In this document: positions 567 to 16,181 of the stretch, in pieces
Position numbering within the stretch: the first letter of the stretch is position 1
How the letters are laid out: each line of letters begins with the position of its first letter
Assembly: GCA_017454295.1 (NCBI GenBank)
Contig: JAFTDF010000004.1
Coordinates: 118,776 to 182,775, forward strand
Length of the DNA: 64,000 nt
Direction: 5' to 3'
Source: Bacilli bacterium
Lineage (GTDB): Bacteria; Bacillota_I; Bacilli_A; RFN20; CAG-826
The notes under the pieces: model-generated
What the model was told of the DNA's origin: nothing
Database searches by the model: none
The model's input: only the letters and a program-made list of their open reading frames with translations
Translations under genes and position numbers: made by a program

Positions 567-1253
567 TTACGCACCTAAATACGCGCAAACAAATTCGGTA
601 AGCTCCTGCTGGCAGGCAGGGAAATTGGCTTCATACTCGCCCGCGGCCCCGGTATCGGAGACAAAGCGGCATGCCAAGAAAGGTTTCTCATAGCAGAAGC
701 AAACTTGGACATAGGCGGCGCTTTCCATATCGACGGAAAGGATACCCGGAAACTTGGCTTGGATATCTTGGATTTTCGCAGAGGAGGCAACGAAGGTGTC
801 GCCAGAAGCGATTTTGCCTTGGGCATGGGCATAGCCGAATTGCTCGCAAACGGCCTCGGCTTTCTGGAGCAAAGAGGCATCGCCCGGAAGCTCGATCATA
901 TTGAGCCCAGAAAGCATTCCGACGGGGTCGCCAACGGCGGAAGTATCCATGTCGTATTGCAAATATGCGGAACCAAAAATGGCGCTTCGCAGACCGGCAC
1001 GGTTGGGATCGAGACTGCCGCCGACCCCGACATTCAAGACCGCATCGATTTGTTCGTCATAACGAGTGAGAACGGCTGCCAAAGCGGAGGCGGCAAAGCC
1101 TTTCCCAACGCCGGAGACCAGCAACAGGAAACGGCATCCTCGGCCTTCCATATGGTAGAGCTTTGAGATTTTCCCAAAGGCTTCTTCGCGGAAAGAAAAA
1201 CGCGCCAATATAGGGCGGATTTCTTTTTCCATTGCGGCGACGAAACAGATCAT
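567..1253 (-). CDS. mtnN: 5-methylthioadenosine/S-adenosylhomocysteine nucleosidase
   Basis: 228 aa with the Pfs/MtnN hallmarks (GVGKG, SVDMESAA) and nucleosidase length. Same strand as the oxidoreductase downstream. Confidence 0.85.
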   Translation of the reverse strand: MICFVAAMEKEIRPILARFSFREEAFGKISKLYHMEGRGCRFLLLVSGVGKGFAASALAAVLTRYDEQIDAVLNVGVGGSLDPNRAGLRSAIFGSAYLQYDMDTSAVGDPVGMLSGLNMIELPGDASLLQKAEAVCEQFGYAHAQGKIASGDTFVASSAKIQDIQAKFPGILSVDMESAAYVQVCFCYEKPFLACRFVSDTGAAGEYEANFPACQQELTEFVCAYLGA

Positions 1254-1271
1254 AAACGGTGCAAAACCCCA

Positions 1272-1865
1272 TTATTCTTTGGGTTCTTGCGGGTTTTCCT
1301 CACGACTTTGGGGTTCTTCGACGGGTTCTTTGTTTTCTTCTTGAGCACGGGCCGCTTCTTCGGCTTGGGCGGCCTCTTCTTCGCGAAGCGCTTCATCAAC
1401 GGCTGTGCCAAGCGAGGGCAACGGACGATACCAGTGATAGAGAATGCTGGCGATATAGAAGAGGGCTAAATAGAGCATGTTCGCCCCTAGGAAATAACGG
1501 AACAAGGGAGAGGTCTCCGCCCCTTCCGGAATATGGACCAAACCATTGGCAAAGGCATAAATGTCGAAGCCGATGACGGTCAACGCGGCGGGCAAGACGC
1601 CAATTTTATCGAAGAAGGAGTTTTTCGCACGACGCTTGGGAGAGGCAAGCATCCAAATGAAATCGATGATGAGCCAAGTGCCGCCGATCAAAGTGACGTA
1701 AGAAAAGGCGTAGCGTTTCCAGTCGGCCACGGAGATGACGTTGGCCAAGAAGAGGGAACCCAAAACAGCGAAGAGGACGGCGAAAATCGCCAGCTCCGCC
1801 GAATAGACGAGTTTGACCTTCTTCATCAAAGATTCTTTCGTAAGAGGTTTCGTTTCTTTTTCCAT
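1272..1865 (-). CDS. hypothetical membrane protein with an acidic Glu/Ala/Gln-rich C-terminal tail
   Basis: Four hydrophobic segments followed by EEAAQAEEAARAQEENKEPVEEPQ. The track ORF opens on GTG at 1919. The internal ATG (MEKETKPL) is taken as the start, but no clear SD was found. Confidence 0.45.
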   Translation of the reverse strand: MEKETKPLTKESLMKKVKLVYSAELAIFAVLFAVLGSLFLANVISVADWKRYAFSYVTLIGGTWLIIDFIWMLASPKRRAKNSFFDKIGVLPAALTVIGFDIYAFANGLVHIPEGAETSPLFRYFLGANMLYLALFYIASILYHWYRPLPSLGTAVDEALREEEAAQAEEAARAQEENKEPVEEPQSREENPQEPKE

Positions 1866-1950
1866 GAGCAAAATATTAATGGGGGCGCGTGCGAAAAGGA
1901 AGAGGAAACGATGTTGCACTTTCCCAGATGATGAGTAGAATACCTACGGT

Positions 1951-2466
1951 ATGAATTACAAAGACTATATTCGCGTCCAAGAAGACTTCCCCAAGAAAGG
2001 GATTTCCTTCAAGGATATTTCCCCTTTGCTGGCCAATGGGGAAGCCTTTTCTCAGGCCATCGCCGAATTGAAAGAGGTTTGCGCCAAATGGAATCCCGAC
2101 GTCATCATCGGGCCCGAGGCGCGCGGCTTCGTCGTGGGCGCCCCGCTTGCCCAAGCCATGGGGAAGGGATTCATCATGGCCCGGAAGAAAGGCAAACTAC
2201 CCGGTGAGATCATCGCCAAAACCTATGGCTTGGAATATGGGACCGACACCATCGAAGTCCCGACCTTCGCCGTGAAGAAAGGGACCCGCGTCGTCATCGC
2301 CGACGATTTGCTGGCCACCGGTGGTACCTTGGCAGCCATCGAATCGATGCTAAAAGAACTCGGCGTCGAAGTCGTGGGCATCGTTACCTTGATCGAGCTG
2401 ACCGATTTGCAAGGTACCAAGCTTCTCTCTTCTCCTTATTTCTCATTGGTTCAATACCCCCATTAA
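1951..2466 (+). CDS. apt: adenine phosphoribosyltransferase
   Basis: 171 aa with the PRTase motif VVIADDLLATGGT and an Apt N-terminus (ISPLLANGEAF). Confidence 0.9.
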   Translation: MNYKDYIRVQEDFPKKGISFKDISPLLANGEAFSQAIAELKEVCAKWNPDVIIGPEARGFVVGAPLAQAMGKGFIMARKKGKLPGEIIAKTYGLEYGTDTIEVPTFAVKKGTRVVIADDLLATGGTLAAIESMLKELGVEVVGIVTLIELTDLQGTKLLSSPYFSLVQYPH

Positions 2467-2486
2467 TTTGGGGGTTTCTTTTTTGG
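2457..2486 (+). terminator. intrinsic terminator after apt (CCCCC-loop-GGGGG then TTTCTTTTTTGG), overlapping the apt stop codon
   Basis: GC stem followed by a T-run directly after the apt stop. The GGAGG site for upp follows. Confidence 0.6.
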
Positions 2487-2496
2487 AGGTTATCCC

Positions 2497-3129
2497 ATGG
2501 AAAAAGTCCACTACATCAATCACCCCGTCCTCACCCATAAGATTTCCATCTTACGGAACAAAAAGACCCGGCCCGCCGTCTTCCGTAACCTGGTGCGGGA
2601 AATCGGTATGATCGAAGCCTACGAAGCGCTTCGCCACCACCCTTCCATTACCAAAGAGGTGGAGACACCTTTGGAAGTCATGGAAGGTCATTTCATCCAA
2701 GATAGCGAAATCTGTTTCGTTTCCATTCTTCGCGCCGGGTTGGAAATGGGCCATGGGGCTCGCGATATCCTGCCCAACGCCTGTGAAGGGTTTATCTCCA
2801 TGGCGCGGGACGAAGTCACGTTCAAGCCCACCCTCTCCTATGTCAAACTCCCTGCCGGCATCAAAAACAAACACACGATCATTCTCGATCCGATGCTAGC
2901 GACCGGCGGTTCTTCGATTGCCGCGGTAAAATTGCTTCGCGAAGCCGGAGCCAACGTGGCCGCCTTCTGTTGCATCATCGCCGCGCCCGAAGGGGTGAAG
3001 GCTTTCGCCGAAGCCTGCCCCGATGTGGAACTCTATGTCGGCGCCCTCGACCGCGAATTAAATGAAAAAGCCTACATCTTACCTGGGTTAGGCGATGCAG
3101 GCGATCGTATCTACAATACCGTCGATTAA
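2497..3129 (+). CDS. upp: uracil phosphoribosyltransferase
   Basis: 210 aa with the Upp signature (ILRAGL, DPMLATGGS). Confidence 0.9.
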   Translation: MEKVHYINHPVLTHKISILRNKKTRPAVFRNLVREIGMIEAYEALRHHPSITKEVETPLEVMEGHFIQDSEICFVSILRAGLEMGHGARDILPNACEGFISMARDEVTFKPTLSYVKLPAGIKNKHTIILDPMLATGGSSIAAVKLLREAGANVAAFCCIIAAPEGVKAFAEACPDVELYVGALDRELNEKAYILPGLGDAGDRIYNTVD

Positions 3130-3680
3130 TCGGCTTTGCGGTCCCAGCGTTCGATTTCGTCTTTGCTGGGAACATAGACATAAGGTACGTTGCGGACGAA
3201 GTTTTTATAGTCGAGCCCATACCCGACGAGGAATTCATTCCCTTCGAGCACGTGGCCCACATAACGGACCTCCACATCGTTGACACGTCCTTGGGGTTTA
3301 TCGAATAACGCACACACGGAAACGGATTTCGGCTGATAGGTCTCTTTGAGGTATTTCGTGAGGAAAGCCATGGATAATCCAGAATCCACGATGTCTTCCA
3401 CAATGATGACGTCTTTCCCTTTTAGCGAAATGGAAACGTCTTTGATCATTTTGATTTGGCCGGTGCTTTTCACCCCTTCGTAGGATTTGACTTGAACATA
3501 ATCGAATTGGGCGTCGATAGAGATGTGTTTCATCAAATCGGCGGTGAAATTCAAAGCCCCATTCATCACGCAAAGTAAAATCGGGGCTTGCTCTTGCTGC
3601 GAAAAGTCCGCGCTGATTTGTGCGCCGAGTCTGGCGGCAATGGCCTCGATTTCCTGCTGGCTTAAAATGAGCTTTTCCAT
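3126..3680 (-). CDS. hpt: hypoxanthine-guanine phosphoribosyltransferase
   Basis: 184 aa with IVEDIVDSGLS in a 6-oxopurine PRTase fold. Its stop overlaps the upp stop (shared TTAA). Confidence 0.9.
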   Translation of the reverse strand: MEKLILSQQEIEAIAARLGAQISADFSQQEQAPILLCVMNGALNFTADLMKHISIDAQFDYVQVKSYEGVKSTGQIKMIKDVSISLKGKDVIIVEDIVDSGLSMAFLTKYLKETYQPKSVSVCALFDKPQGRVNDVEVRYVGHVLEGNEFLVGYGLDYKNFVRNVPYVYVPSKDEIERWDRKAD

Positions 3681-3830
3681 AGACGCATTATACGCCTCTA
3701 AAGAAAGAGAAAATACGCGAATTTGCAGAAGACAAAATCAGCATCGTTTGGAAAGTGACAGCTACATCGTTGCCCTAGGTTTTTTTCACGCGCGTCTAAG
3801 CGTATAATAGAAACGTTAAGGAGCGATTTT
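3681..3830. promoter_or_regulatory. divergent hpt/prs promoter region
   Basis: Minus strand: TATAAT ends 6 nt before the hpt ATG, with no SD (leaderless candidate). Plus strand: TTTTTTTCACGCGCGTCTAAGCGTATAAT, then AAGGAG, 8 nt, then the prs ATG. Confidence 0.55.
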
Positions 3831-4817
3831 ATGAACGAGAACGCTGTCCTCTTCTCCCTCTCGGGAAATCCCGAATTGGCTCAAAACATCGCCGAAAAGC
3901 TCGGCACGAAACTAGCGGATGTTTCCATTCGCCGTTTTCCCTCTGGGGAAACGATCGTTGAGCCGATTAATACCGTGCGTGGTAAACAGGTCTTCATCAT
4001 CCAGCCCACCTGCCCTCCGGTCAACGACAACCTCATGGAAGTTTTGATCTTCGTGGATGCGTTACGTCGCGCCTCCGCCTCGGAAATCAATTTGATTTGC
4101 CCCTACTATGGCTATGCCCGTCAAGACCGCAAGGCAAAACCCCGTCAACCCATCACCGCCGCTTTGGTGGCCCATTTGTTGACCACCGCTGGCGTCGATC
4201 GCGTCGTGACCGTCAACCTTCACGCTTCCCAAATCCAAGGTTTCTTCTCTTGCTTGGTCGACGATTTGACGGCCGTCCCTCTTCTCGGGTCTGCCGTGCT
4301 TGCCCAAAAACCCGACTTAAAGAACACGGTTGTCGTTTCTCCCGACCATGGTGGCGTCAACCGGGCCCGCGACCTAGCCGTGACCTTGGGAAACTGCCCC
4401 ATCGCCATTATCGATAAGCGTCGCAAAGCCTCGCTAGAACCAGAAGTAATGGAAATCATCGGCTCTGTCGCCGGCAAAGATTGCATCATGATCGATGATA
4501 TGATCGATACCGGGCGTTCCGCCTGCGTCGGCGCGAAGGCGTTAAAAGCGGCAGGGGCCAAGTCCGTCTCCATCGCGGCGGTCCACCCCACCTTCTCCGA
4601 TCCTTGTTACGATTATCTTTCCGAAGGCATCTTTGACAATATCGTCGTCACCGACTCGATTCCCTTGCAGCAACGTTTTCTCGACCTCAAAGGATTGCGG
4701 GTCGTCTCCCTGGCTTCGATGCTTGCGGAATGTATCCAACGCATTATCAAAAACGCACCGCTTTCGACGGTTTACGAAGCATACGGAAAACCCGAGAACA
4801 TCAAACGGAAAAAATAA
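3831..4817 (+). CDS. prs: ribose-phosphate pyrophosphokinase (PRPP synthetase)
   Basis: 328 aa; YYGYARQDRK flexible-loop motif and a DTGRS PRPP-binding site. Confidence 0.9.
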   Translation: MNENAVLFSLSGNPELAQNIAEKLGTKLADVSIRRFPSGETIVEPINTVRGKQVFIIQPTCPPVNDNLMEVLIFVDALRRASASEINLICPYYGYARQDRKAKPRQPITAALVAHLLTTAGVDRVVTVNLHASQIQGFFSCLVDDLTAVPLLGSAVLAQKPDLKNTVVVSPDHGGVNRARDLAVTLGNCPIAIIDKRRKASLEPEVMEIIGSVAGKDCIMIDDMIDTGRSACVGAKALKAAGAKSVSIAAVHPTFSDPCYDYLSEGIFDNIVVTDSIPLQQRFLDLKGLRVVSLASMLAECIQRIIKNAPLSTVYEAYGKPENIKRKK

Positions 4818-4845
4818 GCTTCCTCAATCGGAAGCTTTTTTGATT
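4817..4845. terminator. bidirectional intrinsic terminator between prs and the convergent membrane-protein gene
   Basis: AAGCTTCC-tcaatc-GGAAGCTT followed by TTTTTTGATT. Confidence 0.65.
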
Positions 4846-5306
4846 AGTTTTCTGCCGAACACGAAGGTAGATACATAGGCCCCGATGCCCAAGACCATCA
4901 TCACGATGAACCCGGCAAGGACAAACCCGTAATACCAACCCGGCAGAGAGGAGCTATTCGCATAGCGAAGCGTCTGCAATAAGACGGCGGCGATTTCTAG
5001 TCCCATCGTGCCGGCAAGGGCGAGGAAGACATAACGGAGCGAGCGTTTGAAATAAATATGGATGAGGTTGGCGATAAACAACGCCAAACCCCCATAAAAG
5101 ATGATCGTTCCCAAAATGAGGTAGGCGTCCAATTCGCGGGTATAACGGAAATTGATGCAGGTGAGGAAATCATCATAGGCCACCGTGCCCAAAACGGCGC
5201 GCACGCCCATTCCCGTATCCACGGAAATAAAGATTATGCCAAACACAAACACGGCCCCGATAATCGAGATCATCGCAATCCAGAAGCCAGTTTCTCTTTT
5301 ATCCAT
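4824..5306 (-). CDS. hypothetical integral membrane protein
   Basis: 160 aa with 4-5 predicted TM helices. No recognised motif. Confidence 0.5.
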   Translation of the reverse strand: MDKRETGFWIAMISIIGAVFVFGIIFISVDTGMGVRAVLGTVAYDDFLTCINFRYTRELDAYLILGTIIFYGGLALFIANLIHIYFKRSLRYVFLALAGTMGLEIAAVLLQTLRYANSSSLPGWYYGFVLAGFIVMMVLGIGAYVSTFVFGRKLIKKASD

Positions 5307-5410: not shown

Positions 5411-6604
5411 TTAATACTTTCGCATTTTCCCGGAAACGGAATGGACGCGGACCGATCCGCCACGGGATTCGACCAAGGCTTTGGCATAAGCGACGGCTTC
5501 GGCTTGGGTCGGAAGCAGCTTAATGACCTTATCCGAAGAGGCCAATTTAACCGACCATTGTCCGGAAGGATGCTTGGCGATGTGGTAGACACGCGGGCCG
5601 GGGCGTCCAGTGGGGACGGGCGTGGTGATCGCGGGACGGCGGCTGGGTTGCAACTTCTTCTCCGGATTCACGGATGAAGGTTCGGGTTGCGGCTTCGCGG
5701 CAGGCTTCGGAGCGGGTTTGGCAGCGGGTTTCGGAGCGGGCTTGGGCTCTTCCACAGGAATCGGAGCAACGACCGGCTCGGGTTCGGGCTCGGGAGCGGG
5801 TTCCGGCTCGGGCTGCGCTTCGGGTTCAGGAGCGGGTTCTTCCGCTTTCGGAGCTTCGGCGGCAGCGGGTTCGACAAAGGGGGCTTCTTCCACCGGGGCG
5901 GAAGCTTCAAAGTTGGTTTCGGGTTGCGCGGCTTCCTTCGAGCCAATGCGGCGGAGGAAGATCAGCAACAATGCAATCAAGAAGGAGCCAATGACGCAAG
6001 CGGTCATGATGATGTAGTTCAAATAGGTGGTGATATCGCTGAAAACGATGGTCGAGAAGTCAAAGACGAAGAGACCATATTTGTCCCAACCGGGCTGACC
6101 CATAACGGTGAGGGCGATGGCGATGCCACCATAAGCGGCGACGGGGATGATGCCGGTAAAGGCAACATACCAACCGAGTTTGGGCTTGCATTCGAATATG
6201 AAGCTGAGAATGGCAAGGACCGGGGCGATGATGTGCAATTCAAGGGGCCAGGTATAGTCCGTGACGGCAGCCCACCCATTGCCGCCGATGTTCTGGGGGC
6301 AGATGTAGGTAAGAACCATAATCATGGTGACGGCCGAGGCGGTGACGCCCATGAGTTTGAGCGCGGAAACGAACTTCGAACCTTTCTTTCCATTGACGAT
6401 GGTAATGTCCGCGATCAGAGCGGCCAAAGAGGTGACGGCAAGCAAGATCCCACTGTCGACCGTAAAGTATTTCACAGCCTCCGTAATGGTCATGGTTGTC
6501 GTTCCGGGAAGGAATCCCATAATCAGATTGAGCACGGCGAAAACAACGACGCCGATAGTCAATACGTTGAGGATTATGGCAACGATGTGACGACCTTTCT
6601 TCAT
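5411..6604 (-). CDS. membrane protein with a Pro/Glu/Ala/Lys-rich linker and a C-terminal DUF2188-like domain
   Basis: 397 aa with about 6 TM helices, then a PEPEP/KPAPKPAAKP low-complexity region, then PRVYHIAKHPSGQWSVKLASSDKVIKLLPTQAEAVAYAKALVESRGGSVRVHSVSGKMR. AAAGGAG ribosome-binding site 8 nt before the ATG. Confidence 0.6.
   Translation of the reverse strand: MKKGRHIVAIILNVLTIGVVVFAVLNLIMGFLPGTTTMTITEAVKYFTVDSGILLAVTSLAALIADITIVNGKKGSKFVSALKLMGVTASAVTMIMVLTYICPQNIGGNGWAAVTDYTWPLELHIIAPVLAILSFIFECKPKLGWYVAFTGIIPVAAYGGIAIALTVMGQPGWDKYGLFVFDFSTIVFSDITTYLNYIIMTACVIGSFLIALLLIFLRRIGSKEAAQPETNFEASAPVEEAPFVEPAAAEAPKAEEPAPEPEAQPEPEPAPEPEPEPVVAPIPVEEPKPAPKPAAKPAPKPAAKPQPEPSSVNPEKKLQPSRRPAITTPVPTGRPGPRVYHIAKHPSGQWSVKLASSDKVIKLLPTQAEAVAYAKALVESRGGSVRVHSVSGKMRKY
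5690..5860 (-). repeat. imperfect short tandem nucleotide repeats encoding the PEPEPAPEPEP / KPAPKPAAKPAPKP linker
   Basis: Reiterated ggttcgggctcggg and gcgggtttggcagcgggtttcgg units seen in the DNA. Confidence 0.6.
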
Positions 6605-6723
6605 AAAATCTCCTTTTTCAATTTGCCTAATTATACGCCACGCACGTGAATTGTGAATAGTTTCTCATTGTCTTAAAAGCGTGCAAAATCCGCATGTTTA
6701 CGGCTCTTTCTTCGCACCTAAGA

Positions 6724-6758
6724 AACCAAAAAATCACCCCCCTACGGAGAAGGTGATT
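6724..6758. terminator. intrinsic terminator (AATCACC ... GGTGATT with flanking T-runs on both strands) ending the 9206..6790 operon
   Basis: 7-bp GC-containing stem. TTTTTTGGTTT on the minus strand and TTTGTTTTTTG on the plus strand. Confidence 0.6.
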
Positions 6759-6789
6759 CTTTGTTTTTTGTTGGGTTTTTGCGGCTTTT

Positions 6790-8652
6790 TTAAATAGAAC
6801 CATTCATCAAGTCGATCACCAAGAAGACAACGCTGGCAATGAGCAGTAAGACGTTGGGGATGGTGAGCAAGGCACGATAAGCGTTCTTCTTTTGACGTAA
6901 GAGTAACGTAGCGAGTAAGCACATTGCGCCCGCCCCAAGGAAGCCATAGCAATAAGGACCGGTGGCCTCCAAAATTTTCGGGAAGAGGAAGAAGGCCAAT
7001 GCATAAAGGCTGAATAGAATCCCGCTGATGCCAAGGATCTTGGCCCAGACATCCGACCCGCGTTCATCAAAGCCGAAACGACGATGGATGGCAAATAGGG
7101 CGACCGTCACACCGATCACCGGAACGGCAATATAAGATAGACGGTTCACCATGGGCGAGATGTTGGCGGCTTGGGCAACCAAAGGTACCACCACAGCTAA
7201 GACAAGGGGAACGATAATCGCCAAACTCACATAAAGGAGCATCGACATAAAGTCCCAACTCTTGATCACGGTGTTCTTCTCTCGTTTTCCCCAAGGCAAA
7301 CGGATGTTTTCTTGGGTTTCGCCATAAAGATAATGCAGTTCGTCGCAGCCCGACTTCAAAGCAACGCGATGGGCGTGGGGCGAACGGAGCAAATCTTTCT
7401 TAAGCCCACGGAAGGTTTTCTGCTGGGAAGGGGCGAGGTTTTGGGAGAGCTCGTAAAGGGCAGGACCCATCTTTTCGAAATCGCCCCGCTTCTTCTTGCA
7501 ATGGACCAACAGGCTCATCAAGGAGAACTGGCGTTCTTCATCGAGTTGTTGATTCACGGCTTCGCCAAAAACGATCACTATGGTCTCGAAATCGGTTTTC
7601 TTCAATTCCGCGACCAACAATTCGAAATAGGCTTCTTGGAGTTCGGGATCGGCAAGCAAGCGGGCCGTTAAACCTACCGCATATTCTTCATGGAGCAGCA
7701 AAGCCTCGTCTTGGCTTTTGGCGAATTCATAGAAGTCGTCAATGTTCTGGCGTTTGCACTTCTCGACGCCATAGGCGTAATGGAACTCTGCTTCGCTAGG
7801 CAGGGTAAATGCCGCTAGGGCGATGCAGTCCTCGGGAATGTAGTCGCGGTGTTCGTAATAGAAGAGGGCTTGCTCGTAATCGTCCCCTTCGAACGCGGCT
7901 TTGGAAAGATCGTTAAAAGCTCCGTAAACGATTTCCAGGAATTCGTTGCGGCGAGCTTCGGTCCGATTCGAACGCTCCATGCCCGGCTTGGATAGTTCCC
8001 CATCCACCGCAAGGGCGGCAAGGAAATCTTCTTGGGAGAGGATTTGGCCCCGGAATCTGAGCGCGGCATTGGCATAGCCAAAACCAACGAGTTTATCCAA
8101 ATGGTATTGTTTGCTGGCTTCCCCATCGATTTGGGTGCCGAGGTTCTCGGCGATTTGCCGATAAGCATCCATTTTCGCTTCTTCTAAAGCCGGCTGCTCG
8201 GCGCGCAAATTGGCTTCGCCCATGTGGGCATAAACGCAAGCCTTCTCATGACCGAGGATCTCGCGGATAAGCTTTTGGGATTTCAGGGGGATGCCATAAT
8301 CCAAAGGTAGGAATTTGGAATTCAAGGCGTCGATGCCCACAAGCGCTTGCTCGTATTTGCCTTGTTCATCCAACGATTTGACATATTGGAGAACTTCTTC
8401 GAGGTAGGTGGCATAGTAGGCGATGTCTTCTTTGCCTTTGGCGATGTTTTCGATGGGCTTAACGAAAGAGGCCATTTTCTTTTTGGCTTCGAGCAAAGCG
8501 TTGAGATTATCGTGCAAGGCCAATAGGCGTTGTTCGGTCTTTTCCAAATGAATGGAGGCGACGGATTTGATGGCGGAGGCTTCGGCGACGGCTTGGTCGA
8601 GGTCGGCGAGTTGACGCTCAACGAAAGAGGGATTGACTTCGAAATCAGGCAT
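6790..8652 (-). CDS. large hypothetical protein: about 470-aa cytoplasmic alpha-helical domain plus a C-terminal block of 4-5 TM helices
   Basis: The ATG at 8652 is preceded by AGGAGGAACCGCAAA and overlaps the upstream gene stop (coupling). No catalytic motif was recognised. Confidence 0.55.
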   Translation of the reverse strand: MPDFEVNPSFVERQLADLDQAVAEASAIKSVASIHLEKTEQRLLALHDNLNALLEAKKKMASFVKPIENIAKGKEDIAYYATYLEEVLQYVKSLDEQGKYEQALVGIDALNSKFLPLDYGIPLKSQKLIREILGHEKACVYAHMGEANLRAEQPALEEAKMDAYRQIAENLGTQIDGEASKQYHLDKLVGFGYANAALRFRGQILSQEDFLAALAVDGELSKPGMERSNRTEARRNEFLEIVYGAFNDLSKAAFEGDDYEQALFYYEHRDYIPEDCIALAAFTLPSEAEFHYAYGVEKCKRQNIDDFYEFAKSQDEALLLHEEYAVGLTARLLADPELQEAYFELLVAELKKTDFETIVIVFGEAVNQQLDEERQFSLMSLLVHCKKKRGDFEKMGPALYELSQNLAPSQQKTFRGLKKDLLRSPHAHRVALKSGCDELHYLYGETQENIRLPWGKREKNTVIKSWDFMSMLLYVSLAIIVPLVLAVVVPLVAQAANISPMVNRLSYIAVPVIGVTVALFAIHRRFGFDERGSDVWAKILGISGILFSLYALAFFLFPKILEATGPYCYGFLGAGAMCLLATLLLRQKKNAYRALLTIPNVLLLIASVVFLVIDLMNGSI

Positions 8653-8926
8653 TTTGCGGTTCCTCCTCTTCTTCGACGGCAAGGGGGACTTCCAATTTGC
8701 GGAACGCATCTTGGACATCCATATAAGCCAAATTCAAATCGCGAACACCCTGGGAGAAAGCCTGGGTCACGCCGGCTTGGCTTTTAGATAAAGCTTCGGA
8801 GGCGGCGTTGAGCTTCTCCACGGTCTTTTTATGAGAGGTGGCGATTTCCGCTTCTTTTTGTTTGATCACACGGTCGAGATCTCGTGTCTTGGCGCCATAG
8901 ACTTTGGCAAATTCATTCGCAGTCAT
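8645..8926 (-). CDS. small predicted coiled-coil protein (93 aa) with an acidic tail EEEEEPQNA
   Basis: Middle gene of the coupled trio; overlaps neighbours by 14 and 8 nt. Confidence 0.5.
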   Translation of the reverse strand: MTANEFAKVYGAKTRDLDRVIKQKEAEIATSHKKTVEKLNAASEALSKSQAGVTQAFSQGVRDLNLAYMDVQDAFRKLEVPLAVEEEEEPQNA

Positions 8927-9206
8927 CGGGATCTCCTTTCAAACCATAAGCTTGATAGGACGCCAAAATGCTTTCGCAGGCTTTTTGGTCGGCCTCACGG
9001 ATCACTTTTTCGGCGGCGTCTTTTACCCGCTTTTCGGTTTTCTCGATCAACGCATTGACTTGGGCAAGCGTGTCTTCCTGACTCCGCTGATACTCACCAA
9101 GGCCTTCGTCAAATGCCATATCGACGTTTTCATTCAGCGCTTCAATCGCAGCCGCATTGGAAGCGGCCTTCCGCTGGAGCGCCGAAATTTTGGGATTCTT
9201 AGGCAT
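8913..9206 (-). CDS. small predicted coiled-coil protein (97 aa)
   Basis: Strong GAGGGAGG ribosome-binding site 6 nt before the ATG. First gene of the trio. Confidence 0.5.
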   Translation of the reverse strand: MPKNPKISALQRKAASNAAAIEALNENVDMAFDEGLGEYQRSQEDTLAQVNALIEKTEKRVKDAAEKVIREADQKACESILASYQAYGLKGDPDDCE

Positions 9207-9268
9207 AAGAAACCTCCCTCGCTTTTAGACATTTTAACAAGAATGGCGAATTAATAAATCATTATTAA

Positions 9269-10303
9269 TCAGGCTTTGTTGTGCTTTTGGAATGCCGAAG
9301 CCAACATTGGAGAATCCAAGTTGGAAAGATTCTCGAATGTTTCGATGCCAAGCAACAGGAACAAGGCCCCGATTTCAAAAGGCAAGGCAATCGACCAAAG
9401 CGCTTTGGCTTCTTGGGAATATTCGTATTGGTCGGAAAGCAACGAAAGCGTGTCCCGATAAAGTTCCATCGCTTTCTCATATTCCAAATCGGCGGTGCCG
9501 TTTTCCCGAACATAGCCATCGATCATCGTCATGAGTTCGGTTTGCCGGGGAAGGTCAAAGGCCCCTTCACGTAGGAACAAATGAAGCTCTTTGATTTGCT
9601 CCGAATTGAGGTATTTCGATTCTTGAATCGTTTGGCCTTCCGCTGTTTCATCCGGCCAGAAAAGCCTGCAAATCTTCTCTACTTCATCAAAAATCTGAGT
9701 GAATGAGTCGGCTTTTCCATCATAAAGTTCGGTAGTCCCGAATCCATAGGCGGCAAAACAGAAAGGTAGTCCCGCATCCCGTGTCGCCACCCCGTCTTGA
9801 TCGGTGTCGCCGATATAAATGGCGCGTTCGATGCCGTGGCGTTCCATCAAAGCCCGGATGGTCACGGACTTCTCTTTTTTGGTGTCGGACCAACACATAT
9901 GGTCGAGGAATAAGCCGGGGGCCAAAGGCAAGAAGTTTTCGATATAGCCGCTTTGGCAATTGGAGACGATGTAGAGGGGATACCCTGCCTCCTTTAATTT
10001 GGTAAGGGTCTCTAGCTCGTTTTCGAAAAGCTGACCAGGGTGGTTCCTCAGGTATTCCACTTCATAGGCAAAACAGTCGTCGATAAAACGTTTTCTCGCT
10101 TCCGGTTCGAGTTCGCCCAAGGTGATGGAGGCGGCAATTTGGTCCATGGTCCGTCCCATTTGCGAACGAGCCATCTCAGCCGTGATTTCATAGTCACCGG
10201 AAAAATACTGCCGTCCCACGATGGTCCAGGATTCACCCACGGGCTTGCAAGCATCCCATAAGGTGCCATCTAAATCAAAAATCAATGCGGGTTTCGTCTT
10301 CAT
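9269..10303 (-). CDS. HAD-superfamily hydrolase with an extra C-terminal domain of about 140 aa
   Basis: FDLDGTLWD motif I, a downstream SNC motif and a GDTDQD-like motif III. The C-terminal 140 aa has no recognised fold. Confidence 0.7.
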   Translation of the reverse strand: MKTKPALIFDLDGTLWDACKPVGESWTIVGRQYFSGDYEITAEMARSQMGRTMDQIAASITLGELEPEARKRFIDDCFAYEVEYLRNHPGQLFENELETLTKLKEAGYPLYIVSNCQSGYIENFLPLAPGLFLDHMCWSDTKKEKSVTIRALMERHGIERAIYIGDTDQDGVATRDAGLPFCFAAYGFGTTELYDGKADSFTQIFDEVEKICRLFWPDETAEGQTIQESKYLNSEQIKELHLFLREGAFDLPRQTELMTMIDGYVRENGTADLEYEKAMELYRDTLSLLSDQYEYSQEAKALWSIALPFEIGALFLLLGIETFENLSNLDSPMLASAFQKHNKA

Positions 10304-10306
10304 ACA

Positions 10307-11581
10307 TTACCGAAGGGGAAGCAAATCGTTTTCCCAATATCCTTTTAAGAAATTCACCATGGCATCCAAATCCGCCACGCCTTGGGTCTCAACGCAAGAA
10401 TGCATGGCCCATTGGGCGATCCCGATATCGGCGGCGGAGAGGGAGACTTGGGCATTCGAAAGATTGCCGAGGGTGCTGCCGCCAGGCAAATCCGAACGGT
10501 TGCTATATTCTTGAACACCGACACCGGCTTTAAGGCCAATCATCTTGGCATAGGAAGCCGAAAGGGCATCGGAAGTATACTTAGCGTTAGCGTTATATTT
10601 CACGACGATTCCTCCATTGAGACGGACGTTGGTCGTGGGATCGGAAATTTCGGGATAGTTGGGATGGTTGGCGTGGGCATTGTCCACGGAGAATAAGAAT
10701 GAGGAGGCAATAAGCTCTTTCTTTTGGGTTTCATCCAAACCGTAAGCAGCGCAGATTTCTCCAATAAACGTTTCTAAGAAGGTCGAGGCGGCACCTTGCT
10801 TGGTCAAAGACCCCACTTCTTCGTTATCAAAGGAAACAAAAACCTGAATCATATCTTGGTTAGGCTTAGCTTGCGCAAAGGCGAGCGCAGCGGAGTAAGC
10901 GGAGGAAAGATCATCCAGCCGCGGGCTCATTAAGAATTCTTTTTCCAAGCCAACGCAAATGGCTTCTTGGCGGACATAAAGGAAGAGGTCGTGAGCCAAA
11001 AGTTTTCCATTTTGCGCGCCAGCAGCCTGAAGGACCATCTTTTCAAATGCAGGTCCATCGAATTTGCCCTGGGTCAAAACCGGAATCAACTCTTTGGCGG
11101 GGTTATATTCGTGGCCTTTATTGATGGTCCGATCCATGTGGATGCAAAGGCTGGGAATCACCAAAAGGTTTTGGTCGATGTCGACGAGGGCTTGCTTCAT
11201 GGCGCCATTTTCTTCATAGACGATCCGGCCGGCCACGGAAAGCGGACGGTCGAACCAAGTGTGCATGATCATGCCCCCATAGGGCTCGACATTCAGGCTG
11301 ATGATGTCTTTTTTGACAAAAACGGGGTTGGGTTTGAGCTTAAAGGTAGGCGAATCGTTATGGGTCGCGACGATTTTGATCGCTTTGGGTTGTCTTAAGG
11401 GCAACTTCGCTGCCACGAAAGAAGATCCGTTCGCTTGGCGGCGTAGCTTAGCGCCAGGAACAAAACGGTTTTGGGCATCGGCAATCGCATAATCGGCGAA
11501 AAGCGTTTCCAGATTCTTCACCACATGGAAGGGCGAGTGGGAAGCGTTCAATAATTCAATGATTTGGGTGACGTTTGACAT
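10307..11581 (-). CDS. M18-family aminopeptidase (aspartyl aminopeptidase-like)
   Basis: 424 aa with a conserved M18 layout (HxD ... DNEEVGS ... HS). GGAGGTAACGCCC precedes the ATG. Confidence 0.85.
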   Translation of the reverse strand: MSNVTQIIELLNASHSPFHVVKNLETLFADYAIADAQNRFVPGAKLRRQANGSSFVAAKLPLRQPKAIKIVATHNDSPTFKLKPNPVFVKKDIISLNVEPYGGMIMHTWFDRPLSVAGRIVYEENGAMKQALVDIDQNLLVIPSLCIHMDRTINKGHEYNPAKELIPVLTQGKFDGPAFEKMVLQAAGAQNGKLLAHDLFLYVRQEAICVGLEKEFLMSPRLDDLSSAYSAALAFAQAKPNQDMIQVFVSFDNEEVGSLTKQGAASTFLETFIGEICAAYGLDETQKKELIASSFLFSVDNAHANHPNYPEISDPTTNVRLNGGIVVKYNANAKYTSDALSASYAKMIGLKAGVGVQEYSNRSDLPGGSTLGNLSNAQVSLSAADIGIAQWAMHSCVETQGVADLDAMVNFLKGYWENDLLPLR

Positions 11582-11901
11582 GGGCGTTACCTCCGGGCAT
11601 TAAGCATATACCAACGCGCGAAAAGTTGCTCTAAAAACGCCTTTTAGGACCCCAAAAACCATCAAAAAACATAAAAACGGCTGACTATTTTTCACTGAAC
11701 TTTCAAAGTTTTGATAAAGCGCTTTCAATCCAGTTTTCTGTCCTTTTTCAGTCGATGCAGTGCCATTTTCCTCTTTTTAGGAGAGTTCATTTTGGTCTCT
11801 CTTTTTAAGGGTTTCACTCCCCTTTTCATGTTTTTTTCTCTTTTTTGTGGTTTTTCGATTTAACTTGGGTATTATTAAGCCGCCGAAAGGAGGATTTCCA
11901 A

Positions 11902-12915
11902 ATGGCGAACAACAGAAAACCGGTCGTCCCTGTCTTCTTTGGATGCGACCAACGCTTCACACCCTTCCTGAGCGTCGCCCTCATTTCTTTAATCGCGAAC
12001 ACATCCGCCCGGCGTCGTTACGAGATCCATATTCTCCACACCGACATCAACGAAGAAACCCAACGAAAATACCTGGCCTTTGCCAAAAACAACGTCTCGA
12101 TCCAATTCGACGATGTGACCAGCGATATCGCTTCGATCGTCGACCAGCTCCCGATTCGCGACTACTATTCCCCTTCTACCTACTACCGTTTTGTCATCGC
12201 GGCGAATTTCCCGCAATATGACAAAGCCCTTTATATCGATGCCGATACCGCCATCGTCGCCGACGTGGCCAAGCTTTACGACACCAACCTTGGTGACAAC
12301 TATGTCGCCGCCGTCCCCGAAGCCGTCATGAACACCATGGATCCCGCTGGCTTATATGCCGAAAAGGTCCTTGGTATCAACCGCAAGAAATACTTCAATG
12401 CTGGGATGATGCTAATCAACTCCAAGCAGTGGCGAAAAAACGATGTCCTCGGGCAGTTCATCAACCTGATTTCCTTCTACAATTTCGTGGTTGCCCAAGA
12501 TCAGGACTATCTCAACGTCATCTGTAAGAACAAAGTCCATATCCTCCCCCGGAAATGGAATATGGAAGCCATCAAAAACTGGAAGATTTCCGAACACGAC
12601 ATGGGCATCATCCACTATGCTTTTGCCGCCAAGCCCTGGCACGATATCAACTGCCTCTATGGCCAATACTTCTGGAAATACGCTTCCAAATCCCCCGACT
12701 TCATGGAGATCAAATCCCATTTTGCCGGCGTCACTCCGGAAAAGCTCGAAGCGGAAAAGAACGTCGCCCCCGCCGTTTTGGAAATCTGTCTGGCCGAAAT
12801 CGCCCGTCACGACAACTTCCTCCACCGCATCCATTCCAACCGTTATTCCAAGGCTCTTGGCCAACAACCCGTGATCGTTGAGCTCATTTCGCGTCTACGC
12901 GAGAACGAAGCTTAG
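11902..12915 (+). CDS. family 8 glycosyltransferase (LPS alpha-1,3-glycosyltransferase-like)
   Basis: Nucleotide-binding DxD (IDADTAIV) and the GT8 pattern HYAFAAKPW. AAAGGAGG lies 8 nt before the ATG; the longer track ORF start was rejected. Confidence 0.8.
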   Translation: MANNRKPVVPVFFGCDQRFTPFLSVALISLIANTSARRRYEIHILHTDINEETQRKYLAFAKNNVSIQFDDVTSDIASIVDQLPIRDYYSPSTYYRFVIAANFPQYDKALYIDADTAIVADVAKLYDTNLGDNYVAAVPEAVMNTMDPAGLYAEKVLGINRKKYFNAGMMLINSKQWRKNDVLGQFINLISFYNFVVAQDQDYLNVICKNKVHILPRKWNMEAIKNWKISEHDMGIIHYAFAAKPWHDINCLYGQYFWKYASKSPDFMEIKSHFAGVTPEKLEAEKNVAPAVLEICLAEIARHDNFLHRIHSNRYSKALGQQPVIVELISRLRENEA

Positions 12916-12933
12916 TGTTATCATAGTTGCGTC

Positions 12934-13719
12934 ATGGCTGAAAAACTTCCCGACACCATATATTTCAGCGACCCGTTGCACGACGAGTTTTCGACGATGG
13001 AAATCCACGCCGAACACATTGGCAAAGATTATCGCTATATCCGCAACGATACTTTCCTCGGGAAATTAGCCCACTTCTTCTATTTTCGTATCATCGGCAA
13101 GCCTTTGGCTTGGTTTTATCTTAAGTTCAAATTCCGTCATGAAATCGTCGGTAAATGGAAATTAAAACGATATAAGAAGTTCTCGATTTTCCTTTATGGG
13201 AACCACACCCAGATTATTGGGGATGCCCTCATGCCGGCATTCATGGTTTCACCGCGTTCGATCAACGTCATCGTCCATCCCAATAATGTCTTTATTCCCG
13301 GAATCGGGAAATATGTGCCTCACCTTGGCGGACTTCCTCTCCCTGGCGATAAAGAAGCCAAAGCCAATTTCGATAAGGCAATTGATTTGCGCGTCAAGCA
13401 GCATCAACCCATCTTTATCTATCCTGAGGCTCACTTATGGCCCTATTACACCGGGATTCGTCCCTTTGTTTCGGACAGTTTTATTTACCCCGTGTATTAC
13501 GGAATGCCCGTGTTTTGTTTCACCAATACCTATCATGAGCGGAAAAACGGCAAAGTCCGGATCCGTACCTATATCGACGGCCCCTTCTTTGCTAACGGGA
13601 ACCTCAATCCCAAAGAAGCCCGTGAGGATCTACGCAACCGCGTCTATAACCAAATGGTGGAACGGAGCGGCCTAAGCACTTACGAGAAGATCAAATATAT
13701 CGAGAAGAAAAATGGTTAA
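12934..13719 (+). CDS. PlsC/LPLAT-like acyltransferase with an atypical HX5D motif
   Basis: GNHTQIIGD, YPEAHLW and block IV hydrophobics. Paralogous to 14544..15410. Confidence 0.65.
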   Translation: MAEKLPDTIYFSDPLHDEFSTMEIHAEHIGKDYRYIRNDTFLGKLAHFFYFRIIGKPLAWFYLKFKFRHEIVGKWKLKRYKKFSIFLYGNHTQIIGDALMPAFMVSPRSINVIVHPNNVFIPGIGKYVPHLGGLPLPGDKEAKANFDKAIDLRVKQHQPIFIYPEAHLWPYYTGIRPFVSDSFIYPVYYGMPVFCFTNTYHERKNGKVRIRTYIDGPFFANGNLNPKEAREDLRNRVYNQMVERSGLSTYEKIKYIEKKNG

Positions 13720-14542
13720 CCTCCTGTATTGTGGCAACGAAAAAGTCTTCGATGGCATCCTGACAAGTTTGCTATCGGCCGTCAAACGCGACCCGTCTCG
13801 CGATTCGTTCCACGTCTACGTGTTCACCATGGATCTTACGCGCCTCAACCCGGCTTATACCTGCATCTCCGATCGTTTGATTTCGTTCTTGGATGGGGTG
13901 ATGAAATCCTATAACCCCGAGTCCAAAGTCGAAAAAATCGACGTCACCGAGCTTTATGAATCCACCATGGGCCATTCGCCCAACGAAGGCGCTTATTGTT
14001 CGCCTTACACTTTGATTCGCCTTTTGGCGGATCTGGTTCCGAATATGCCGGACCGTCTCCTTTATTTGGATACGGATATCATGTTCAACCGCGATATCCA
14101 TTTGCTTTATGAGCAACCCTTCAACGGGGCGGAATTCGCGGCGGCCAACGACCACTATGGCAAGTATCTCATCAATCCCCGTTATATCAATGCCGGGGTT
14201 TTGCTCTTTGATATGGTCAAATGTCGGGAGACGGGACTATTCGCCAAATCGCGGGATTGGATCAATAAAAAGAAACTGGTCTTCGCCGATCAAAGCGCTT
14301 TGCAACGGGCATGCACCAAAAAACGCCTTCTATCCCAAAAATTCAACGACCAGAAGTTCCTTCACAAAAGCACGGTCGTCCGTCATTTCTCCAAACGTTT
14401 GTTCTGGTTGCCCTACCCCCATACCGACAATATCAAGCAATACCACGTGGAGAAGGTCCACAAAGTATTCCGTTATCATCAATTCGACGATATCTTGGAC
14501 GAATACCTCGTCTTAAAAGCGAAATACGAAGGGGAAGCCTAA
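13712..14542 (+). CDS. family 8 glycosyltransferase (second copy)
   Basis: LDTDIMF DxD and NAGVLLFD motifs. Start overlaps the previous gene by 8 nt. Confidence 0.75.
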   Translation: MVNLLYCGNEKVFDGILTSLLSAVKRDPSRDSFHVYVFTMDLTRLNPAYTCISDRLISFLDGVMKSYNPESKVEKIDVTELYESTMGHSPNEGAYCSPYTLIRLLADLVPNMPDRLLYLDTDIMFNRDIHLLYEQPFNGAEFAAANDHYGKYLINPRYINAGVLLFDMVKCRETGLFAKSRDWINKKKLVFADQSALQRACTKKRLLSQKFNDQKFLHKSTVVRHFSKRLFWLPYPHTDNIKQYHVEKVHKVFRYHQFDDILDEYLVLKAKYEGEA

Positions 14543-14543
14543 C

Positions 14544-15410
14544 ATGATCGAAAAAGATCCCGAAAGATTGGAGGTCATCGCTCGTTACGAAGCCTTGGAA
14601 GCCAAGGGGATTTTCGATTTGGATGTGGAAGAAGATCCCGAAGGAAGTATCATCCTCCCGGGGATGGTGGATTATAAGCAAAAGAAACTCTCCACCAGAA
14701 TCAAAGCCAAATGGACCTTCCATCTGGCTCGTAAATTCCTCAACCGCATCATCAAGAAGGGGCTTCTCGTGATCAAAGATGTCATCGGGGTCGAAAACCT
14801 CGACGATCTCCAAAGCGGCGCCGTCTTAACCTGCAACCATTTCAATGCGCTCGATTCCTTTGCCATGCAAGTGGCCTACGAACGTTCTACCGTTTCGAAA
14901 AAACGCAAGCTCTTCCGGGTCATTCGCGAAGGCAACTACACCTCCTTCCCCGGCTTCTATGGCAAATTGATGCGGGCTTGCAACACCTTGCCCCTATCCT
15001 CCAACATGGCCACCATGAAAGAGTTTCTCGATGGGGTGGATTACCAACTCAAAAAAGGCAACCTCGTCTTGGTCTATCCCGAGCAATCCATGTGGTGGAA
15101 TTATCGTAAACCCAAACCCTTGAAGAAGGGGGCCTTCAACTTCGCCGCGAAAGCCGGCGTACCGGTCGTCCCCATCTTCATTTGCATGGAAGATAGCGAT
15201 CACATCGGCCCCGATGGCTTCCCCGTTCAAGAGATGACCATCTTCGTCGATAAGCCCATTTTCCCCGACTTAAAAAAGAACATCGTCGCCAACACCCAAG
15301 CGATGATGGATGAGAATTATCGACGCTGGAAAACCATCTATGAGGAGTTCTATAAGATTCCTTTGGTTTATACCTGCGATCAGAATAAAAAACCGCAAAA
15401 ACCCAATTAA
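14544..15410 (+). CDS. 1-acylglycerol-3-phosphate-acyltransferase-like (PlsC family)
   Basis: Canonical NHFNALD (HX4D), YPEQSMW and PVVP blocks. Confidence 0.75.
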   Translation: MIEKDPERLEVIARYEALEAKGIFDLDVEEDPEGSIILPGMVDYKQKKLSTRIKAKWTFHLARKFLNRIIKKGLLVIKDVIGVENLDDLQSGAVLTCNHFNALDSFAMQVAYERSTVSKKRKLFRVIREGNYTSFPGFYGKLMRACNTLPLSSNMATMKEFLDGVDYQLKKGNLVLVYPEQSMWWNYRKPKPLKKGAFNFAAKAGVPVVPIFICMEDSDHIGPDGFPVQEMTIFVDKPIFPDLKKNIVANTQAMMDENYRRWKTIYEEFYKIPLVYTCDQNKKPQKPN

Positions 15411-15422
15411 AGGATAAAAAAT

Positions 15423-16181
15423 ATGAGATTTGCCGCGTTTAACGTTAATGGCATTCGCGCCATTTTGGGGAAGGGCTTTGCCGAAAGCTTCTCCGCCCTC
15501 CATCCCGATTTCCTCGTCTTAGGGGAAACCAAGCTTTCCGATCCCAATGCCCCCTTCCCTTATCTTCCGGAAGGCTATTCCGTCTACCACACCGAATCCA
15601 AATTAAGGAAGGGTTATTCCGGCGTTGCGATCTACGCTAAGGAAGCACCGCTCTCCGTCCATTATGGATTAAAGGATGGCAAGTATGACGAGGAAGGCCG
15701 CGTCATCACTTTGGAATATCCCGATTTCTTTTTAGTCGGTGCCTATGTCCCCAATGCCGGCGATGGCCTGAAGCGTCTCGACTTCCGTCTTCAATATGAG
15801 CAAGACCTCGTCTCCTATTTGGATGAACTCGATGCCATCAAGCCCGTCATCTATACCGGCGATTTGAACGTGGCCCACCAAGAAATCGACATCAAGAACC
15901 CCAAAGGCAACGAACGCAATCCCGGCTTCACCATCGAGGAGCGCACCGCCTTCTCCGATTTGCTTTCCCATGGCTATGTGGATACCTATCGTTATCTCCA
16001 CCCCGATACCGTCAAATATTCTTGGTGGAGTTATCGTTTCCACGCCCGCGAAAACAACGCCGGCTGGCGCATAGACTATTTCGTGGTTTCGAAGCGTCTG
16101 CTCCCGCGCGTCAAGGATGCCGAGATCCATAACGACATTTTCGGATCGGACCATTGTCCGGTCACTTTGGATTTGGAATGA
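15423..16181 (+). CDS. xth: exodeoxyribonuclease III
   Basis: 252 aa; FNVNG, GDLNVAH and SDHCPV motifs of the Xth/ExoA EEP nucleases. Confidence 0.9.
   Translation: MRFAAFNVNGIRAILGKGFAESFSALHPDFLVLGETKLSDPNAPFPYLPEGYSVYHTESKLRKGYSGVAIYAKEAPLSVHYGLKDGKYDEEGRVITLEYPDFFLVGAYVPNAGDGLKRLDFRLQYEQDLVSYLDELDAIKPVIYTGDLNVAHQEIDIKNPKGNERNPGFTIEERTAFSDLLSHGYVDTYRYLHPDTVKYSWWSYRFHARENNAGWRIDYFVVSKRLLPRVKDAEIHNDIFGSDHCPVTLDLE

Follow-up and report, generated by a model that had tools for sequence, protein, structure and literature searches.

Membrane-tethered adaptors and membrane-anchored phosphatases are both known in bacteria: LapB/YciM is a TPR protein of the first kind, and the HAD-superfamily phosphatase PgpC of E. 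coli carries its own membrane anchor. PgpC, PgpP/YqeG of Bacillus and Staphylococcus and Gep4 of yeast are HADs that act on lipid head groups at the membrane (PMC11804483). Here we analyzed a 64,000-nucleotide stretch (the window) of contig JAFTDF010000004.1 from a Bacilli bacterium (GenBank assembly GCA_017454295.1, positions 118,776 to 182,775 of the forward strand), in which a HAD phosphatase gene lies in one unit with genes for four protein families that we call X, S1, S2 and L (Table 1). A preliminary description had recognized in this region a coupled trio of unknown function, corresponding to S1, S2 and L. The trio did not hold: the conserved unit consists of the HAD phosphatase, X, S1, S2 and L, and the only recognizable enzyme of the system, the HAD, which is fused to X in the window, had been omitted. 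As a kind of gene set, this module is new: no relative of it could be detected among the systems described so far, and a function can only be proposed for it. Like PgpP, PgpC and Gep4, the module would contain a HAD-superfamily phosphatase with a membrane substrate at the cytoplasmic face, and HAD-X would be anchored as PgpC is, but those enzymes have no X, S1, S2 or L partners. For L, the region in the cytoplasm is predicted to be a membrane-attached helical solenoid, to which BamD is the closest compact structure, although a weak match. L differs from both BamD and LapB/YciM in its predicted anchor, which is formed by five C-terminal transmembrane (TM) helices, whereas such adaptors are held by a lipid or by a single N-terminal TM helix.

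Fourteen loci (numbered L001 onward, as used below) were reached via L homologs, with L identity down to 18–25%, and were fully examined. Seven further loci were reached independently, by an X-seeded pattern scan of JGI metagenomes based on a narrow X alignment. Genes for S1, S2 and X (~126–133 aa) were located upstream of L in all 14 L-reached loci, and a ~210-aa HAD_2 hydrolase was found upstream of X in 13 of them. The order HAD-X-S1-S2-L was also observed in all seven X-reached loci, as far as each contig extends. The S1/S2 and S2/L junctions varied from -26 to +5 nt in 14/14 loci, in agreement with the tight coupling of the three genes that had been described for the window, and the X/S1 junction spanned -4 to +130 nt. 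The flanks differed among loci and included M18 peptidase, ROK, ABC transporter, MscS, JetABC, MarR and DUF2188/DUF1508 membrane protein genes. Thus, the constant block is the module itself.

HAD and X form one polypeptide in the window and in L001, L002, L005, L006 and L019 (together, the window clade). Free-standing X occurs in L004 and L007–L013, and the window protein can be recognized as a fusion because its last ~124 residues align with these free-standing proteins. A second group of HAD-X fusions was detected in a distant Enteromonas branch (L014 and P0185). Since the unfused L004, L007 and L013 branch between the two fusion clades, either two independent fusions or repeated fissions must have occurred.

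In the NCBI annotation of this "Bacilli bacterium" metagenome-assembled genome (MAG), whose contig has 193.6 kb, S1, S2 and L (IJU64_00735, IJU64_00740 and IJU64_00745) are all hypothetical proteins. Comparison with the orthologs in L001, the closest relative (72% identity in L), gave dN/dS values of 0.12 for S1, 0.17 for S2 and 0.16 for L. Because of these low values and the retention of the genes in the 14 fully examined loci, we conclude that S1, S2 and L are genuine genes under purifying selection and not chance open reading frames (ORFs). The overlaps reported previously, 14 nt between S1 and S2 and 8 nt between S2 and L, are correct. The L gene itself was also correctly called, although its reported length of 621 aa included the stop codon and the protein has 620 aa. 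A longer L ORF starting at 8718 (642 aa) was rejected because all homologs begin with MPD and the NCBI annotation also gives 620 aa. The ribosome-binding site claimed for S1 is present (GAGGGAGG at 9220..9213, 6 nt before the ATG), and AGGAG/GGAGG sites for S2 and for L are each located within the preceding gene. The claimed terminator was likewise found, as a terminator-like hairpin with a T-run 27 nt past the L stop codon. Scanning of the HAD-X/S1 spacer gave no terminator-like site on the minus strand; a possible extended -10 element within it (TGTTAAAAT at 9239..9231) is our own reading of the sequence, unscored by the scan. An Rfam search over the window yielded three tRNAs only, all distant from the module.

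The N-terminal part of HAD-X matched PF13419 (HAD_2, E=1.4e-16, residues 7–182). All four HAD motifs were present, with catalytic D10/D12 (DxDGT), S114, K145 and D166/D170 invariant in 30 sequences. Searches with the AlphaFold2 model of HAD-X (pLDDT 88.6, pTM 0.71) using Foldseek returned phosphoglycolate phosphatase, BT2127 pyrophosphatase and CbbY-type structures, with a best E value of 2e-10 and target-normalised TM-scores of 0.76–0.82, over ~220 columns only. Motifs I–IV, a Rossmannoid core and a helical C1 cap place the protein in subfamily IA of the HAD superfamily. Judged by these motifs and the model, the catalytic unit is a HAD-IA phosphatase with a C1 cap, of the kind that uses small phosphorylated molecules. 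Fold, cap type and catalytic motifs are shared with HAD-IA enzymes of determined structure (PDB 2hsz, 2nyv, 2ah5 and 3d6j; BT2127, 3qu2), but identity to these is just 17–22% and none of them has the X extension. The best sequence matches were structural-genomics proteins of unknown substrate.

Assignment to a specific enzyme was also attempted. All NCBIfam equivalog (specific-enzyme) matches to the HAD fell far under their cut-offs; Gph was rejected with a best score of 45 bits against a cut-off of 225 (NF009695), and PpaX with 21.5 against 218. Identity with PgpP/YqeG was rejected as well, as no YqeG model occurred among the NCBIfam matches at E<=0.001; neither a PgpP nor a PgpC model was matched. 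The generic HAD-SF-IIIA domain scored 33 bits against a cut-off of 44.6 for the window HAD (the YqeG type being defined as HAD-IIIA, COG2179, after PMC11804483).

The X part of the AlphaFold2 model contains helices at residues 234–245, 251–267, 273–288 and 297–318, and two conserved motifs, YLSxxQ and (L/I)xDxFVRxNGxADxEY, were evident in X alignments. No Pfam match was detected in 13 X members and no match in PDB. The best 19-residue Kyte-Doolittle window of X scored 1.56–2.56 in 14/14 sequences, whereas S1 and S2 reached at most 1.0. Residues 297–318 were modeled as helical with pLDDT 80–88, and hydropathy and model together suggest that this hydrophobic helix inserts in the membrane. As a separate observation, the C-terminus of X (window 9272..9286, minus strand) ends in Ala in 20/20 complete sequences, mostly as P-x-A-COOH. 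This cannot be explained by gene overlap because the X/S1 gap reaches 130 nt, and it may be a recognition or processing signal.

The architecture described earlier for L, a cytoplasmic helical region followed by 4–5 TM helices, was borne out, with five TM helices predicted. The AlphaFold2 model of L, built with 8 sequences, was all-helical (pLDDT 79.8) and exceeded 90 across most of residues 130–440. Within the 43-sequence L alignment, in which overall identity is about 20%, invariant residues other than the start Met were confined to two places. In the stretch adjacent to the membrane these are K433 and G455, with R423, S424 and A427 near-invariant; in the TM2–TM3 loop they are D529 and E530, accompanied by near-invariant G527 and S533. 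The mean number of Lys plus Arg residues over the 43 members was 5.1, 2.1 and 3.4 before TM1 and in the TM2–3 and TM4–5 loops, respectively, compared with 0.3, 0.3 and 0.3 on the opposite side. This distribution indicates that the large N-terminal part of L (460 residues) is cytoplasmic, and the predicted topology has the N-terminus inside and the C-terminus outside.

No Pfam family, TPR included, was found for L across the 43 members (E<=0.1). A canonical TPR family was rejected, as the sole match, of one member to TPR_MLP1_2, is to a coiled-coil family. In Foldseek searches against PDB, L gave weak matches (E 9e-3 to 0.2) to designed repeats, HAT/TPR spliceosome subunits and BamD, the last with the highest target-normalised TM-score of the weak solenoid matches (0.49). 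Nothing significant was found for L in BFVD by Foldseek (best E 1e-2), no PDB match was obtained by sequence or profile, and the N-terminal helices had coiled-coil noise only in PDB.

S1 (pI 4.7) and S2 (pI 5.2) are acidic, within a family range of pI 4.3–5.8, and neither carries a hydrophobic segment by Kyte-Doolittle analysis. Their acidic tails, previously noted, are present: S1 ends in ...GDPDDCE and S2 in ...EEEEEPQNA. Both proteins are kept in 14/14 loci, S1 always at the same position, with lengths of 89–112 aa among loci; D29 and Q43 are invariant in S1, and F57 is invariant and N40 and N65 near-invariant in S2. We also observed that the S2 ortholog in L001, with 173 aa, has an extra Glu/Pro-rich acidic tail of ~85 residues (L001, 7751–8008) that is absent from S2 of the window. 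S1 had no family match in Pfam, NCBIfam, PADLOC or PDB (13 members being searched singly against Pfam), and S2 had none above threshold in 13 members. Below threshold, 5/13 S2 members matched Spectrin repeats (best E 0.0035). In the family searches with S1 and S2 members, ZapB and DivIC appeared only as noise (E~0.1 in 2/13 members). The two proteins are predicted from sequence to be helical. Their designation as coiled coils in the preliminary description is putative, drawing on composition and on weak spectrin or coiled-coil noise matches only. Comparison of X, S1, S2 and the L N-terminus with hhalign gave a probability of at most 2.6%, and these are therefore not paralogs.

S1, S2 and L, like X, lack a family in Pfam, NCBIfam, PADLOC, PHROGs and PDB, consistent with the earlier failure to assign a motif to any of the three proteins of the trio. 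The best PHROGs match (E 0.005) was to a family of unknown function, PADLOC gave zero S1/S2 matches and only noise for L (GajB, E 0.019; LmuB, E 0.042), and PDB searches with S1, S2, L and X returned hemagglutinin HA2, spike heptad repeats and designed coils, all noise. A word-indexed search of 5.8 billion proteins detected 7 L relatives only, and its repetition with the 43-sequence profile gave the same 7. When 1.84 billion cluster representatives (50% identity clusters) were searched exhaustively with a profile, 45 L-family clusters emerged, 40 of them at E<1e-30, almost all of 615–639 aa and matching end to end. A pattern scan of 185,579 GTDB species genomes, which reaches close relatives only, added one carrier, an "uncultured Bacilli bacterium" from reindeer rumen. 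The rumen and the guts of animals commonly harbor RFN20 and related uncultured Bacilli. The carrier samples were rumen and gut metagenomes, and the named carriers were "Bacilli bacterium" MAGs and Candidatus Enteromonas; one carrier in the branch of L014 is named Candidatus Enteromonas sp. This genus corresponds to GTDB UBA733 in order RFN20, family CAG-826 (PMC8035907), a family predicted to be peptidoglycan-deficient (PMC10868615). RFN20 and its uncultured relatives among the Bacilli mark the route by which mycoplasma-like cells evolved from walled Firmicutes (PMC10868615).

We tentatively propose, with somewhat less than even confidence, that the module assembles on the inner side of the membrane into a complex by which a small-molecule HAD phosphatase is tethered or controlled. 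Such a location is suggested because an enzyme, two proteins that could be anchored in the membrane and two small soluble proteins are co-inherited and co-translated as a set, and inclusion of the HAD in the complex is suggested also because the enzyme has repeatedly been fused to one of the anchor proteins. L would be the platform, combining its five-TM anchor with a conserved charged site at the membrane interface, the solenoid and the pair of long helices at its N-terminus. The tether would be X, its hydrophobic helix inserting in the membrane or in the helix bundle of L. S1 and S2 would be soluble acidic accessory subunits, kept in a fixed ratio with L through translational coupling; they may contact the poorly modeled helices at the L N-terminus, or their acidic tails may dock on the L solenoid. 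Given the coupling, the stoichiometric complex predicted in the preliminary description is plausible. The HAD, covalently joined to X in the window, would be the catalytic output, and the scaffold would hold or gate it at the membrane surface so that a small membrane-proximal substrate is dephosphorylated. C1-capped HADs use small substrates rather than proteins, and a small membrane-proximal phospho-compound would therefore be expected; this might be an intermediate of a lipid head group or a metabolite passed on at the membrane. A membrane-proximal substrate is plausible for a HAD because PgpP, PgpC and Gep4 set a precedent (PMC11804483). It is also possible, although doubtful, that X, S1, S2 and L represent an undescribed membrane machine that arose in the wall-deficient RFN20 lineage of gut and rumen Bacilli, has no kinship with Psp, ESCRT-III, division or secretion systems, and captured an already existing housekeeping HAD for placement at the membrane.

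Several observations weigh against a membrane complex that tethers or controls the phosphatase. The HAD subfamily (signature SNCQxGYIE) is widespread as a free enzyme, with 2309 matches at E<1e-10, and free relatives of ~212 aa with 43–49% identity occur in organisms named Lachnospiraceae and Eubacteriales; there, the subfamily must work without X, S1, S2 and L. In L010, no HAD gene is located directly upstream of X. Rather than anchor the protein, the hydrophobic segment of X could lie at the core of a soluble bundle. The window HAD also differs in type from PgpP/YqeG, being a C1-capped HAD-IA protein (COG0546/Gph-like) and not a HAD-IIIA protein, and nothing indicates a lipid or any other particular substrate. 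Complex formation, membrane insertion of X, the substrate and the physiological role are all points that we infer.

If the HAD were a mere operon neighbor, the remaining proteins might form a structural membrane scaffold, a helical lattice attached to the membrane, serving cell shape, division or membrane organization in wall-less bacteria. The occurrence of the HAD subfamily without the module fits this alternative, as do the helical and acidic nature of X, S1, S2 and L, the long N-terminal helices of L, the weak spectrin-repeat matches in 5/13 S2 members and the presence of at least one carrier, Candidatus Enteromonas, in CAG-826, a family predicted to have no peptidoglycan (PMC10868615). 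However, the two separate HAD-X fusions argue that the HAD physically belongs to the system. In addition, no match to EzrA, DivIVA, GpsB, SepF, ZapA or another division family was found in Pfam or NCBIfam, no cell-division genes were located nearby in any of the 14 loci, and the loss of the wall is a prediction at family level. We consider a scaffold of this kind unlikely.

The preliminary description had suggested membrane remodeling or stress sensing, and no result points specifically to either. A sensor of membrane state or stress appears quite improbable. In such a sensor, L would use its five TM helices and interface motif to register osmotic stress, tension or lipid composition, with S1 and S2 as partners in regulation and the activity of HAD-X as the regulated output. 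Library scans found no sensor, kinase, transcription-factor or nucleotide-second-messenger domain in any component. The conserved charged motif of L right at the membrane interface would suit such a role, and wall-deficient cells depend on osmotic control. In L010, L011 and L014, an MscS-type mechanosensitive channel gene lies upstream of the module in divergent orientation, but this neighborhood occurs in just 3/14 loci, and the evidence is circumstantial throughout.

A comparison with known systems of small helical proteins was also carried out. Like PspA/IM30/Vipp1, S1 and S2 are helical cytoplasmic proteins encoded with a membrane protein, but they have 89–112 aa, under half the ~220 aa of PspA, and no homology was detectable. 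The preliminary description had named a PspA/Vipp1-type match as the result that would make this a known system; no PF04012 or Snf7 match was found for S1, S2 or L of the window (E<=1), and no PspA_IM30 or Snf7 among the families listed for 13 S1, 13 S2 and 43 L members. S1 and S2 resemble the WXG100 pair EsxA/EsxB as two tandem co-translated helical proteins of ~95 aa. WXG100 identity was rejected, as W-x-G occurred in 0/14 S1 and 0/14 S2 proteins, S1 has no Trp at all, and PF06013 was absent among the matches listed; within 5–8 kb on either side, no FtsK-type or EssC/EccC ATPase or other type VII secretion gene was present in the 14 loci. It is thus highly improbable that the module is a diverged version of a known system (PspA/IM30/ESCRT-III repair, a WXG100/type VII pair with a membrane component, or anti-phage defense), even though the size (~90–110 aa) and arrangement of S1/S2 recall EsxA/EsxB, Wadjet JetABC lies immediately downstream of L in L009 and L012, and very remote homology would be compatible with negative family searches, since neither the window proteins nor the recurrent families of the 13 S1 and 13 S2 members include PspA_IM30, Snf7 or WXG100 in Pfam, the PADLOC results were likewise negative, and stable chromosomal synteny with housekeeping genes together with vertical divergence is unlike a defense island.

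Table 1. Features of the module and adjacent sequence, with positions in the window
Feature	Position	Strand	Length	Remarks
M18 family aminopeptidase	10307..11581	minus		NF002759, 433 bits; ends 3 nt before HAD-X start
HAD-X fusion	10303..9269	minus	344 aa	NCBI MBQ9457027.1, "HAD family hydrolase"; first gene of the module
HAD-IA phosphatase core with helical C1 cap	9644..10303	minus	residues 1–220 of HAD-X	assigned from motifs and Foldseek
X domain	9272..9643	minus	residues 221–344 of HAD-X	four predicted helices; C-terminal Ala
X hydrophobic helix	9350..9415	minus	residues 297–318 of HAD-X	putative membrane anchor
HAD-X/S1 spacer	9207..9268	minus	62 nt	contains GAGGGAGG; sequence read directly
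S1	9206..8913	minus	97 aa	NCBI MBQ9457026.1 (hypothetical)
S2	8926..8645	minus	93 aa	NCBI MBQ9457025.1 (hypothetical)
L	8652..6790	minus	620 aa	NCBI MBQ9457024.1 (hypothetical); helical, membrane-anchored (predicted)
L, N-terminal helices	8365..8631	minus	residues 8–96	two long helices (8–31, 37–96); pLDDT 45–80, least confident part
L, solenoid	7327..8355	minus	residues 100–442	compact alpha-helical solenoid, TPR/HEAT-like by shape only; pLDDT mostly >90
L, membrane-adjacent stretch	7252..7392	minus	residues 421–467	most conserved stretch: LLRSPxAHKxxxKS...H.L.GE...P.GK...K.WD
L, TM region	6805..7260	minus	residues 465–616	five predicted TM helices: 465–495, 500–526, 531–556, 562–584, 591–616
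L, TM2–TM3 loop	7054..7080	minus	residues 525–533	predicted cytoplasmic loop, RFGxDERGS
Intrinsic-terminator-like hairpin	6763..6727	minus		16-pair stem, then TTTTTTG; ends the unit

Several neighboring genes were also examined. The M18 aminopeptidase was rejected as a module member because its position beside HAD-X is limited to the window clade and its location in L014 is different; it is probably co-transcribed with HAD-X in the window clade. Downstream of L, positions 5411..6604 (minus) encode a protein of 397 aa, which begins with a polytopic membrane region, continues into a long linker rich in Pro, Glu and Ala and ends with a DUF2188 domain. In 10/14 loci, a gene of such architecture, with DUF2188 or DUF1508 at its end, immediately follows L, so that a loose link to the module is possible. 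For the window gene, membership in the operon was rejected because the terminator and the gene's own near-consensus promoter-like site (TTCACA-16-TATAAT, 6657..6630) lie between it and L. A 320-aa ORF antisense to this gene (5687..6649, plus) is a Gly/Arg/Phe-rich shadow of the linker and not a gene. The 160-aa membrane protein encoded at 4824..5306 (minus) shares homology with the TM region at the N-terminus of an L013 protein of 536 aa (9230–10840). As the L013 protein continues into an acidic linker and DUF1508 repeats, the window protein looks like a split or truncated form of that architecture.

Other neighborhoods were specific to subsets of loci. An MscS-type gene accompanied by a 147–179-aa gene of unknown function was found in three distant loci (L010, 3366–4968; L011, 2491–4212; L014, 5178–6907), and complete Wadjet-like JetA/JetB/JetC genes follow L in two low-GC carriers (L009, 7992–13235; L012, 7883–13116). 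A divergent cluster at 11845..16181 (plus), whose place beside the module is conserved in L013 as well as in the window clade, contains genes for two GT8 glycosyltransferases, an acyltransferase and an Exo_endo_phos protein, together with a 261-aa gene of unknown function, these labels being taken from gene calls in the syntenic L001 and L002. L007, L013 and the window clade have a nucleotide-salvage cluster (prs, several phosphoribosyltransferases, UPRTase and PNP_UDP_1) at a distance of a few kb from the module; at window positions 567..4817, prs alone was confirmed (3831..4817), and the other salvage genes are calls in related loci (L001, L002, L005, L013). Elsewhere in the window, three ORFs of 588, 618 and 595 aa (42883..44649, plus; 48142..49998, minus; 51163..52950, minus) had no Pfam match at E<=1e-5.

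The distribution of the module is narrow (45 clusters among 1.84 billion representatives), which limits its general reach. Nevertheless, the two fusions tie four orphan families, X, S1, S2 and L, to a phosphatase and thereby provide a testable entry point, in which the HAD-X fusion names the enzyme and L names the membrane site. Should the proposed model be wrong, four new protein families and a rule for their co-occurrence would still stand and could aid the annotation of proteins now listed as hypothetical in all carrier genomes. To our knowledge, the organization and upkeep of the membrane in cells without a wall are poorly understood. If X, S1, S2 and L are indeed an undescribed machine that captured a HAD in the RFN20 lineage, one role for it might be the completion or control of a step in lipid or glycolipid metabolism that became critical after loss of the wall.

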